Of a stretch of DNA of 64,000 bases, positions 17,527 to 46,594 are shown in pieces; the first letter of the stretch is position 1, and every line of letters begins with the position of its first letter. The notes below the pieces were generated by a model that was given only the letters and a program-made list of their open reading frames with translations, was not told where the DNA came from and searched no databases. The translations under genes and the position numbers were made by a program. Location of the stretch: contig CAWHDZ010000007.1 in assembly GCA_963828255.1 (NCBI GenBank), positions 160,001-224,000 of the forward strand. The letters are read 5' to 3'. Source of the DNA: an uncultured delta proteobacterium. GTDB taxonomy: Bacteria > Myxococcota > Myxococcia > Myxococcales > Anaeromyxobacteraceae.

Positions 17527-17607
17527 CGGGGCGTCAGCGCAGCGACGGCGATCTTCTCGACGGCTGTTGACGCCCCCGGAACTTGCCAACATTCCTGGGG
17601 GACTTGA

Positions 17608-17951
17608 TGGAGGCGCGGGGAATCGAACCCCGGTCCGAAAGACTTCGTGCGACTGGCCCTACGCGCGTGTCCCGGAGAATTTACGTGATCGGCAACCTCC
17701 GGGCCTGCAACCGATCACGTTCTCGCCCTTACGTCTCGACCTGATCTAGGCGGCTCGCTTCCCGCTCAGGTCCAACCGGAGCTGACACCTGACCCCGCTA
17801 CCCGGTGCTCACGGGGGGATGCGCGGCACTTAGGCCGCGAGAGCCATGGGCTCGTTCGCGTTTCTGCGTGGTCGCCTTTTTACGTGGCCTGGTGACCAAC
17901 CACGGCGCGCGCCATGCGCCTTCTGTCCTCCGTCGAAGCCAGTTCGCCCCC
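17608..17951 (-). ncRNA. ssrA: tmRNA; tag peptide ANEPMALAA* at 17859-17830
   Basis: 5' GGGGGCG...GGCTTCGAC and 3' CCGGGGTTCGATTCCCCGCGCCTCCA form the Ala acceptor stem and T-arm; internal ORF ending ...LAA-TAA. Confidence 0.95.
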
Positions 17952-18859: not shown

Positions 18860-19095
18860 CGATGGTCCGCGCCGCGGACCATCGGCCAGATGGGGCGTAG
18901 GGTTGACACGCATTTCGCGATGTCACGCTCCGGCGAACGAGGTGCGCGAGGAAGGCATCCGTCGCTGCCGCATCGGGCCGTGGTGCGGCGATCGATATTC
19001 CCGGCGAGGTTCGAAGATCTCCGCGGGAGAAGTCGCGTCAGCGGCGGTCCTCGTGCGTTTGGCGAGGGCGGAATTTCCCGTGAGACAGTGGATCC
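18860..19095 (+). ncRNA. Candidate structured RNA / element end upstream of HNH gene, copy A
   Basis: Colinear homology with 45263-45529; conserved hairpins with compensatory changes. Confidence 0.45.
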
Positions 19096-20241
19096 ATGAA
19101 CGACACGATCCTGTCCTCGGCCCGCGAGTCCTCCCGCAACCTCTCCACCCTGCTCCGCCACGAGCAGGGCGCGATGGCCGACTTTCTCGTGGCCCTCGCA
19201 GACTTCGACCGTCGGGCGCTTTGGCGAGCGCTCGGCCACTCCTGCCTTTTCTACTACCTGCAGCGCGAGCTGCGCCTCTCCGACGGGGCGGCGCACTTCC
19301 GCAAGGTCGCGGCCAGGCTCATCCAGCGCTTCCCCGAGGTGGTCGAGCCGCTCCGCGAGGGCAAGCTCTGCCTCACGAGCATCGTCGAGCTAGCCCGGGT
19401 GATGACCCCGGAGAACCGGGTGGAGACCCTGCCCCAGTTCTTCCACGTGTCGAAGCGGCAGGCGAAGGCGGTGGCGGCGGCGATCTTGCCGGCGGCGGTG
19501 GTCCCGAGGCGGGAGGTGGTCACCCAGGTGGCGAAGGTGGTGCGTCCGGTGGTGCATCCTGATCTGCTTCGGGCCGACTTTCGTCCGGACGAAACTCTCC
19601 CGAGCCGCCCGGAGCCGGAGGCGCGCCCGGCGCTGCCGATGAGGGTCGAGCCGCTGACGGCCACCGAGAGCCGCATCCACCTGACCGTGTCGAACCAGTT
19701 CCTGGAGAAGCTCGAGGCCGCCCGGCGGGGGCAGGGGCACGTGCAGCCGGGCGCGACGAAGGAACAGGCGATCGAGGCGGCGCTGGATCTGCTGCTGGAG
19801 AAGCAGGCCAGCCGCCGGGCGGAGGTGAAGAGGCCGCAGAAGAACCCTCGCCCAGCGACGCCCGACCACGTGACCGCGGCGGTGAAGCGTGCGGTCTGGG
19901 CGCGGGACGAGGGGAAGTGCCAGTGGAAGCTGGATTCGGGTGGCGTCTGCGGGTCGGAGGTGAGGTTGGAGATCGACCACGTGGTTCCGCGCGGGAAGGG
20001 AGGTCCCTCCACGGTGGAGAACTGCAGGATCCTGTGCAGATTCCATAATCTGGAAGCGGCGCGGGGAGTGTACGGCGACGAGGTGATGGACCGGTACACG
20101 AGGAATCCGGTCGCGCGCGAGACCTGCGCCGTCTACTGCGTAGACGTCGCTGTGGCCCCCGCCCTCGCCGCCGCATCCGCCGGGTCGATCGCCAGCGCCG
20201 CCTGGAACGCCGCCCGCGCCTCGTCGCCACGCCCAGCTTGA
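19096..20241 (+). CDS. DUF222-like + HNH endonuclease, copy A
   Basis: RDEGKCQW...C...LEIDHVVPRGKGGPSTVENCRILCRFHN HNH/Zn motif; C-terminus runs into duplicated neighbour sequence. Confidence 0.85.
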   Translation: MNDTILSSARESSRNLSTLLRHEQGAMADFLVALADFDRRALWRALGHSCLFYYLQRELRLSDGAAHFRKVAARLIQRFPEVVEPLREGKLCLTSIVELARVMTPENRVETLPQFFHVSKRQAKAVAAAILPAAVVPRREVVTQVAKVVRPVVHPDLLRADFRPDETLPSRPEPEARPALPMRVEPLTATESRIHLTVSNQFLEKLEAARRGQGHVQPGATKEQAIEAALDLLLEKQASRRAEVKRPQKNPRPATPDHVTAAVKRAVWARDEGKCQWKLDSGGVCGSEVRLEIDHVVPRGKGGPSTVENCRILCRFHNLEAARGVYGDEVMDRYTRNPVARETCAVYCVDVAVAPALAAASAGSIASAAWNAARASSPRPA

Positions 20242-20381
20242 GCAGGCTCAGAGGGGGAGTACTACTGCGTAGACGTCGCTGTGGCCCCCGCCCTCGCCGC
20301 CGCATCCGCCGGGTCGATCGCCAGCGCCGCCTGGAACGCCGCCCGCGCCTCGTCGCCACGCCCCAGCTTGAGCAGGCTCAG
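20133..20381. repeat. Tandem direct duplication (20133-20251 / 20262-20381) of the last ~120 bp of the TPR gene, 10-bp spacer
   Basis: Copies identical except one C indel. Confidence 0.95.
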
Positions 20382-45141: not shown

Positions 45142-45262
45142 GGGCGGGAGACTACGGGGCGGGTCTGACACCCCACGGCGAGCCGCAGCGCGGCGAGCAA
45201 GCACCTCCGACGAGCACTCCCCCGTCACCGGACGTGCCCCACCGCCCGCACGTCGAGCCCAC

Positions 45263-45529
45263 CCGATGGTCAGCGCCGCGGACCATCGGTCATGTGGTTC
45301 GCTGCGCAGAAACGGGCTCGAAAGTTCTCGAAAGTGCTTGACACATTTCGCGACGATTTCACGTTCCGCGAACAGGTTGCGCGCGGAAGGGGCCTGCCGC
45401 CGCCGCATCTCGCCGTGCGGCGACGCGCGGCGTTCCGGGCGAGGTTCGAGATCTCCGCACGGAAAGGCGCGTGCCCGGGCTTCCTCGCGCGCTTGGCGAG
45501 GCCGAAATTTCCCGTGAGACAGTGGAGCC
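45263..45529 (+). ncRNA. Candidate structured RNA / element end upstream of HNH gene, copy B
   Basis: Homologous to 18860-19095. Confidence 0.45.
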
Positions 45530-46594
45530 ATGAACGACACGAACCTGGTCCAGGCCCGCGAATCCTCCCGCCACCTCGCCGACCTTCTCCGCCGCGAGCA
45601 CGTGGCCCTTGCAGAGTTCCTCGTCGCCCTCTCGGAGTTCGACCGGACGGGGGCGTACCGGAGGCTCGGCTTCGCGAATCTCTTCGACTACTTGCTCCAA
45701 GAGTTGAAGGTGTCCCGGGGAGCGGCCCACTACCGGAAGGTGGCGGCCCGCCTCGTCGCCCGGTTCCCCGAGGTCGTGGAACCGCTGCGGGACGGGCGGT
45801 TGTGTCTGACCAGCATCGTCCAACTGGCGAAGGTCATGACCGAGGCAAACCGGGCCGAGGTGCTGCCGAAGTTCTTCCACTGCTCGAAGCAGGAGGCGAA
45901 GCAGGTGGCGGTGGAAGTCATGCCGGCGGCGGTGGTGCCGAGGAGGACGGTCGTCACCGAGATCCCGCCCCCAGTGAAATCAATGAGTTGGCCAGTTCAT
46001 CCGGGTGAACTTTCGGCGACTGCGCCGGAGTGTGCGCCCGTACCAGCGCGGGAACCGGCGAGGACCGTCGTCGAGCCGCTCACCTCCACGATGAGCCGGC
46101 TCCACCTCACCGTGTCCAGGGTGTTCGTGGGGAAGCTCAGGAAGGCCAGGGCCGGCCAGTCGCACGTCCAGCCCGGCGCGGAGGACGAGCAGGTGCTGGA
46201 GGCGGCGCTCGACCTCTTGCTCGCCCAGCAGGAGAAGCGGCGGGCCTGCGTTCCGCCCAGGGTGAAGCGGGAGGTCCGCAAGCGGGATGAGGGCAAGTGC
46301 CAGTGGAAGCTCGATTCGGGTGGGGTCTGCGGGTCGGAGGTGAGGCTGGAGATCGACCACGTGGTGCCACGCGGGAAGGGAGGTCCCTCCACGGTGGAGA
46401 ACTGCAGGATCCTCTGCGACGTCGCACAACCTGGAAGCCGCGCGCCAGGTCTACGGCGACGCGCACATGGACCTGTTCACCCGGGGAGGGCCCCCGGGCG
46501 GCGCACCGCTGGCGAGGGAGGAGGTCGCGCCATACGGGGCGCGGCCACGACCGCCACGGCTCCCCGGGCTCCGGCCGCCGCCTCGTGCCCATGA
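45530..46594 (+). pseudogene. DUF222-like + HNH endonuclease, copy B, with +1 frameshift at ~46418-46424
   Basis: Paralog of copy A; 7 nt instead of 6 between TGC and CAC of the CxxHN motif, with homology resuming in the shifted frame. Confidence 0.75.

Follow-up and report, generated by a model that had tools for sequence, protein, structure and literature searches.

A phased DNA cassette at the left end of a multi-copy DUF222-like/HNH repeat in Anaeromyxobacteraceae, likely a leaderless promoter

Introduction

The closest described system to the repeat studied here is the REP13E12/DUF222-HNH family of mycobacteria (PF02720 + PF01844), for which a short target duplication and a prophage attachment site are known. 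Recombination sites such as res and cer carry accessory sequences, and the parS and Noc sites have palindromic consensus sequences, which the palindromes of the present repeat, with their TTC...GAA arms, resemble.

According to the available text of PMC13061034, 87 gene conversion events fall in REP13E12 regions, whose function is undefined, and this mycobacterial form ranks with the most heavily recombined M. tuberculosis loci; the repeats are also named in the accessible part of PMC10589994. Five putative HNH genes of M. tuberculosis, not necessarily of the DUF222 type, are induced by DNA damage, and the PafBC motif is given as TGTCGG/TGTCAG-10N-TA-3N-T (both in the accessible text of PMC8151990). 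HEARO proteins possess RuvC, HNH and PLMP together with a structurally conserved 5' RNA (accessible text of PMC9755519). In the accessible text of the papers searched, DUF222-HNH repeats have neither an assigned function nor a mobility mechanism, and a search of mainly open literature returned no description of this myxobacterial family, of its cassette or of its palindrome.

Here we analysed two DUF222-like/HNH copies, A and B, in the window, i.e., the whole 64-kb stretch of DNA under study. The cassette 5' of these genes likely forms, as DNA of fixed geometry, the left end of a DUF222-like/HNH repeat of ~1.3 kb and is, at the same time, likely a leaderless promoter; with good probability it acts as DNA, not as RNA.

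Layout of the repeat

The features of the two copies, in window coordinates, are as follows.

18861..18897, plus strand: left module and left edge, made of a palindrome (18861-18883) and a conserved GC-rich block, with 18 genome matches and loose contig ends
18903..18908, plus strand: TTGAC(A) site, 190-194 nt 5' of the ATG in 86/86 long-type copies, without a -10 partner
18909..19002, plus strand: fixed-length spacer, in the alignment with substitutions at synonymous-site level and net length kept
19003..19067, plus strand: conserved blocks at about -92 to -74, -44 to -39 and -32 to -29, likely protein-binding sites, including stems 2 and 3
19076..19095, plus strand: TCNC/GTGA palindromic core overlapping TG-n-GAnnnT, 6 nt 5' of the ATG, likely a leaderless extended -10 and operator
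19096..20241, plus strand: ORF A, with DUF222-like domain, linker, middle segment and HNH, and host DNA past aa ~347
19579..19594, no strand: linker palindrome, in-frame, 16 bp, co-varying, of rare codons, kept in relics
20131..20145, no strand: right end, a short inverted repeat giving the convergent TPR gene its last codons and stop
45265..46510, plus strand: copy B, with left module at 45265, TTGACA at 45338, ATG at 45530, linker palindrome at 45995-46010 and a +1 frameshift within the HNH near 46424

The motifs that the original prediction had placed in both copies are all where it put them: TTGACA at 18903 (copy A) and 45338 (copy B), a 21-mer starting at 19072 and 45506 and ending 3 nt 5' of the ATGs at 19096 and 45530, and stems at 18967, 18998-19029 and 19049 of copy A with their counterparts in copy B. 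The upstream conservation is likewise real and goes beyond two copies, as 19 of the 22 N-terminal starts in this genome (G000) carry the long cassette, far above chance; the chance rate of TTGAC inside the 190-194 window is 0.0013. The cassette starts further left than had been described, with an overlooked left module that consists of the palindrome and the conserved block up to 18897. This module forms a sharp left edge, and metagenome contigs show loose ends at 18860-18865. Its full matches number 18 in the genome, every one at a repeat copy (a degenerate solo match was found besides), which rules out a free host REP element. The left palindrome was absent from the other genera examined, and the left module is genus-specific. 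The fallback offered by the original prediction, a structured element end, is supported.

The tmRNA gene (17605-17951, minus strand) and the TPR gene enclose copy A and a nitrilase gene, neither of which is present in G004, G009, G011 or G012. About 118 bp of the TPR gene 3' end stand in tandem (20133-20251 and 20262-20381; period 129, one-base indel), a duplication absent from the G001, G006 and G013 orthologues, which could be end-associated re-replication (shorter end duplications occur at L037, L081 and L003) or an assembly error. A stretch of ~90 bp 5' of the copy B left module (45165-45253) recurs before a relic (C13:16963-17051, 94% identity) and at L175, as if flanking sequence had moved with the element.

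Protein encoded by copy A

ORF A encodes a DUF222-like helical domain (aa 1-133) followed by a variable linker, and a zinc-finger type HNH (aa ~258-326; Pfam 28.5 bits). The DUF222 match of copy A reaches 23.2 bits against a cut-off of 24.4 with partial coverage; DUF222 matches 36/39 N-termini, partially and near the cut-off, over the first ~85-105 of the 306 DUF222 positions. The Atlas neighbour cluster of the protein is 42% DUF222, and the domain family comprises 12,803 clusters at E 0.001. The conserved part of the ORF ends near aa 347, has no conserved stop and reads through into host DNA, and HNH and zinc ligands are intact in 75/83 ends.

The predicted model shows a confident helical N-terminal domain (pLDDT 96 in the single-domain model), a disordered linker, a helical middle and the zinc-finger HNH. 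In our reading of the sequence, aa ~190-245 may form a ribbon-helix-helix-like segment, whose strand is not formed in the model. Foldseek searches with the full model matched Spo0J (probability 0.96, rmsd 3.4 over 97 columns, with a weak E of 0.29), KorB (probability 0.69) and a DUF3102 protein; the ParB-like structure matches have E-values of 0.29 and 1.1, none below 0.001. PDB sequence and profile searches returned HNH matches or noise and no ParB, and no recombinase motif was found in the ORF. The protein is not an IscB, as had been predicted: it has no RuvC and no PLMP start, its N-terminal domain is all-helical, and the NCBIfam IscB model scores 24.7 bits against a cut-off of 175, on the HNH segment alone. 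The accompanying claim of a distinct mobile multi-copy HNH family also held, with ~20 copies per genome and both filled and empty sites.

A palindrome inside the reading frame

Within the linker, where the ORF varies most, lies an in-frame palindrome of 15-16 bp (19579-19594 in copy A, 45995-46010 in copy B), which is present in 48/69 linkers by a strict pattern and in 60/68 by a looser one, short-type copies included. Its arms co-vary, with one pair being A-T in 31 and G-C in 12 cases and the next pair showing all four Watson-Crick types, and its codons account for 2-6% of the genome-wide use of their amino acids; together, the co-varying arms and the rare codons indicate a constraint on the nucleic acid. 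The peptide trace of the palindrome appears in 75/116 and 19/39 database proteins and in 0 control stretches. A single helix sequence goes with several palindrome variants. In combination with the weakly ParB/KorB-like N-terminal domain beside it, this in-frame, co-varying, rare-codon palindrome in a variable linker is what is new here.

The palindrome survives in degraded copies. By our own count, 11/13 short relics in G000 keep it, in a search from which four flank-only matches were set aside after inspection and in which seven single-match 3'-flank matches were not individually inspected; in G012 and G003, palindrome relics also occupy loci that are empty apart from them and where relatives hold a full copy. 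The G000 relics with the palindrome include C13:17056, C17:78780, C18:50436, C18:81552, C18:103815 and C19:39046, with further relics at C25:97485, C30:163310, C31:128212 and C40:112801 and at L113 and L141, and intergenic relics with the palindrome are often fused to the right end. Outside copies and relics, 34 paired sites were found versus ~25 expected, which is no clear enrichment and speaks against a general host site.

Copy number, empty sites and mosaic copies

Other genomes of the family mostly carry the repeat as well (22/24 with 4-44 matches, one with a single weak match, one with none), and the named relatives are Anaeromyxobacteraceae. Locus A is filled in G000, G001, G003, G005, G006 and G013; G007 and G010 retain only a 3' remnant there, and the ORF is missing from it in G004, G009, G011 and G012. 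Locus B is without HNH in 11/12 genomes, and its flanking genes are directly adjacent (an empty site) in G001 and G006. When 33 loci of the relatives were checked in G000, seven were empty, 15 were long (gap >900 bp) and 11 were unpaired, and more empty sites were seen besides; the 15 loci that are long in G000 too suggest that many insertions are old. No target duplication is visible at the seven empty sites, whose flanks are 71-90% identical. Insertions lie mostly between gene ends and often provide a host stop codon, as at locus A; the right end is fuzzy and protein-coding. No Y1 transposase is encoded in the element, the one weak match in the genome being on a contig without a copy. Inserts of ~1.5 kb or of other kinds, probably insertion sequences, split some copies (C9:11474-12990, C30:75930-77500, L110).

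The copies are mosaics. Copy A and the C40 copy share 84-96% over the body and 62-63% in the cassette, copies A and B share 92% in the HNH and 64-71% in the body, and cassette, body, HNH and right end each have different nearest relatives. Four copies at locus A fail to group as one clade (p-AU 1.4e-44); at three further loci, G000 and its closest relative G010 hold different types, with flanks 87-95% identical. Orthologous loci thus keep their position while their content is replaced. This conversion between dispersed paralogues is of the kind found in REP13E12.

Cassette geometry and promoter reading

Our geometry survey covered 104 distinct starts. Set aside were 11 truncated or atypical ones that have no -10 motif, and 7 more in which TTGAC could not be placed (six lack it, one is too short). 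TG-n-GAnnnT lies 5-7 nt 5' of the ATG in 93/104 starts, with G at -12 in 93/93 and a 6-nt spacer in 83/93, and in all 86 carriers TTGAC falls at 190-194 nt when searched over 170-215 nt upstream. Between these points the sequence drifts: across 63 copies, identity is 0.46 in the far half of the cassette, 0.47 at fourfold-degenerate sites and 0.59 in the near half. The original prediction had named upstream identity no higher than at synonymous sites as evidence against itself, and this is the case for the far half and for that half only. Insertions and deletions hardly occur, even where an RNA would form loops. A small hidden ORF was rejected on account of single-base length changes and the lack of a period-3 signal.

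The spacer between left module and TTGAC varies in steps of about 10 bp: among 60 copies it measures 13-14 nt in 5, 22-24 in 46, 33-35 in 8 and 19 in 1, and because the copies are related, the 59/60 phased spacers count as few independent events. DNA-protein complexes such as res, cer and looped promoters typically keep their length while substitutions accumulate freely and spacing changes by whole turns, and the steps of the left module may be a sign of such a complex. Intrinsic curvature was considered and dropped, since column A content peaked at period 11.0, yet a test for 10-11-bp dinucleotide periodicity was null in 15/16 cases.

TTGACA had been taken for a promoter. It has no -10 partner at 16-18 nt and therefore does not qualify as an ordinary -35 box; read as a sigma-54 box, or on the minus strand as a PafBC box, it showed no partner motif by eye. 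In the host genome, TAnnnT-N6-ATG occurs 160 times versus 33-44 at spacings 2-5, an enrichment of about fourfold, so leaderless transcription looks common, and on this ground a weak extended -10 box of a leaderless mRNA is the best reading of the 21-mer. If so, the cassette would lie outside the transcript.

Five short-type copies replace the whole cassette by TGTCRG-N10-GAnnnT-N6-ATG, a PafBC-type box that points to DNA-damage induction. The box is absent at -28 in copy A and the other long-type copies, and across the genome its motif shows hardly any enrichment (20 at spacer 10 versus 7-18 at others). The host genome has two tandem WYL gene pairs (C17:67006, C27:41017); M. xanthus also has such a pair according to the accessible text of PMC12288472. 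These genes and motifs suggest a PafBC-like damage response in Anaeromyxobacteraceae. A PafBC-type box also stands 5' of a PolB-like exonuclease gene (window 45170-45141, minus strand; kept in G001 and G006), and a near match lies upstream of recA (C16). The copies at L006 and L022 have neither cassette type, so other promoter arrangements exist.

Test of the structured-RNA reading

The original prediction proposed a ~170-nt structured RNA and named covariation over many copies and an Rfam scan among its checks. Our alignments comprised the core from TTGAC to the ATG in 65 copies (15 genomes; mean identity 55%) and, separately, 47 same-genus copies, three frameshifted rows being dropped from alignment A3. 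RNAalifold gave a consensus with zero pairs on both strands for the 65 copies, whose best co-varying columns form no stems, and a consensus energy of -0.64 kcal/mol for the 47. Single cores fold at background level, with a mean z of -0.30 (plus strand) and -0.25 (minus strand) against -0.02 for random genome windows, and with z < -2 in 2/65, 4/65 and 2/50, respectively. The Rfam scan of the window found the tmRNA only, with no match at the cassette and no RF02033. A TnpB-like RNA at the 3' end was likewise rejected, as 77 ends of the 3' coding block have no consensus fold.

The stems present in copies A and B, said to be kept while loops vary, are not kept across the 47 copies: the named helices pair in 62, 62, 92 and 79% of cells, and the 92% helix is plain conserved sequence. 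Mapped on a tree that leaves out the frameshifted L120, changes in the named pairs comprise 11 compensatory, 74 one-sided and 111 breaking events, and slid controls yield 0-3 compensations per helix. Two results favour structure. The named structure exceeds all 500 column shuffles (72.5 versus 68.6 percent paired, and in covariation score too), a control that ignores relatedness, and copy A reaches z = -1.92 as a core, which falls to -3.05 once the left palindrome is included (copy B, -0.80); we attribute both to the relatedness of the copies and to the DNA palindrome. In five RNA-run contig sets the tmRNA is deeply covered and the cassette has little or no cover, with even cover throughout in X15; these are contigs of other strains and are not counted as evidence.

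Proposed mechanism and rival explanations

On balance, we favour the reading that the cassette is the phased DNA end and likely promoter of a ~20-locus repeat whose copies exchange segments, likely because their own protein binds the in-gene palindrome and nicks nearby. TG-n-GAnnnT would be a weak -10 box in need of an activator, controlled by a looped or wrapped DNA-protein complex that forms on the phased upstream sites, so that a damage-activated phased promoter drives a ParB-like reader fused to HNH. The N-terminal domain may be a ParB/KorB-type helix-turn-helix, dimerised via the middle segment, and the dimer would bind the linker palindrome and perhaps also the palindromic core on the -10. 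The HNH would then nick DNA close to where the protein is bound, and repair through RecA, with a second copy as template, would lead to gene conversion, to deletions sparing the palindrome and, rarely, to a new and imprecise insertion where two genes end. The repeat, its geometry, the mosaicism and the palindrome are observed, whereas the use of the promoter and the binding and nicking steps are inferred, and the self-nicking mechanism in full is somewhat doubtful: a self-cut site is expected to be lost, yet it is kept; repeats convert through RecA without any nuclease; the ParB-like matches are weak and profiles find no ParB in PDB; the ribbon-helix-helix strand is not formed in the model; and one helix sequence goes with several palindrome variants. 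The null periodicity tests give no support to intrinsic bending, few independent spacer events lie behind the 10-bp steps, and against the damage promoter stand the low genome-wide enrichment of the PafBC-type motif and its absence at -28 in long-type copies.

The same observations could come from a passive paralogue family, in which the cassette is a co-copied promoter of preserved length, ordinary RecA conversion shuffles the copies, the protein is close to neutral or a host nuclease induced by damage, and the palindrome is a host-kept operator or an mRNA-stabilising hairpin. Any 20-copy repeat converts, and for the high conversion rates of REP13E12 loci no part played by a nuclease is demonstrated, as far as the accessible text of PMC13061034 goes; 15/33 of the relatives' loci are also long in G000, and palindrome survival in relics is what host selection predicts. 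Such a family leaves unexplained the 10-bp steps of the left module, the invariant lone TTGAC, the many lineage-specific empty sites and the 75/83 intact HNH sites in stop-less copies, and we regard it as unlikely.

A res/cer-like recombination site, with the left palindrome as crossover, the phased ~190 bp binding architectural proteins and a host or element protein moving the element, would account for the sharp left edge, the whole-helical-turn spacing and the fixed length with low sequence conservation. It is improbable given that the ORF has no recombinase motif, the right end is fuzzy and protein-coded, the seven empty sites show no target duplication, the left palindrome is absent in the other genera examined and short-type copies are without the whole cassette. 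The structured RNA, a guide scaffold or cis-regulator running from TTGACA and working with the HNH protein as in HEARO/omega systems, draws on the z of copy A with its left palindrome, on the shuffling result (the two findings that weigh against a DNA-only reading) and on an HNH of IscB/maturase type. Computation has already largely refuted it, and it is very improbable: there is no consensus fold on either strand or at the 3' end, z-scores lie at genome background, breaks (111) far outnumber compensations (11), indels are few even in would-be loops, TTGACA lacks a -10, Rfam has no match, and the short-type copies possess an intact ORF without the cassette.

With the phased-DNA reading, a false lead for the mining of RNA-guided nucleases is removed, and the phased promoter/end, the candidate in-gene operator and the loci overwritten in content at a fixed position become testable handles. 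A bolder and rather unlikely proposal would make DUF222-HNH repeats a selfish-DNA class of their own, without need of transposase or guide RNA, in which a ParB-like reader-nickase would act on its own in-frame palindrome, with copies overwriting each other and seeding new sites under a damage-activated promoter and a 15-turn DNA loop. If true, it would offer a mechanism for the REP13E12 conversion hotspot and for the ~12,800-cluster domain family.

Comparison with known systems

The REP13E12/DUF222-HNH repeats share with the present repeat the multi-copy state, a DUF222-like domain with HNH, and conversion between paralogues. Unlike them, the repeat described here matches ~85-105/306 DUF222 positions with copy A under the cut-off and lives in a Myxococcota host. 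We found no description of its phased cassette of 240 bp, of its ORF without a stop or of its in-frame palindrome. IscB/HEARO systems (IS200/IS605) also place a non-coding stretch 5' of an HNH ORF, and the IscB model matches weakly (24.7 bits); they differ in RuvC, the PLMP start, RF02033 and a conserved RNA fold, all lacking here. From IS200/IS605 elements the repeat further differs in having no Y1 in the element and a fuzzy right end, and in that its insertions remodel host gene ends.

In the predicted model, the N-terminal domain aligns with the DNA-binding domains of Spo0J and KorB at weak E-values; in contrast to ParB/Spo0J/KorB proteins, there is no CTPase domain, the domain is fused to a nuclease, and the putatively bound site lies in the gene and has a longer centre. 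The PafBC promoter is echoed in the five short-type copies with TGTCRG-N10 before the -10 and in the tandem WYL pairs of the host, although the -10 begins with G, not T, long-type copies including A have no such box, and regulation of this kind in Myxococcota is a prediction. Like HNH homing endonucleases, the repeat is nuclease-coding DNA likely spreading by break repair; unlike them, it would act between ectopic copies in one genome, is inserted at numerous sites unrelated to one another and contains its own putative target.
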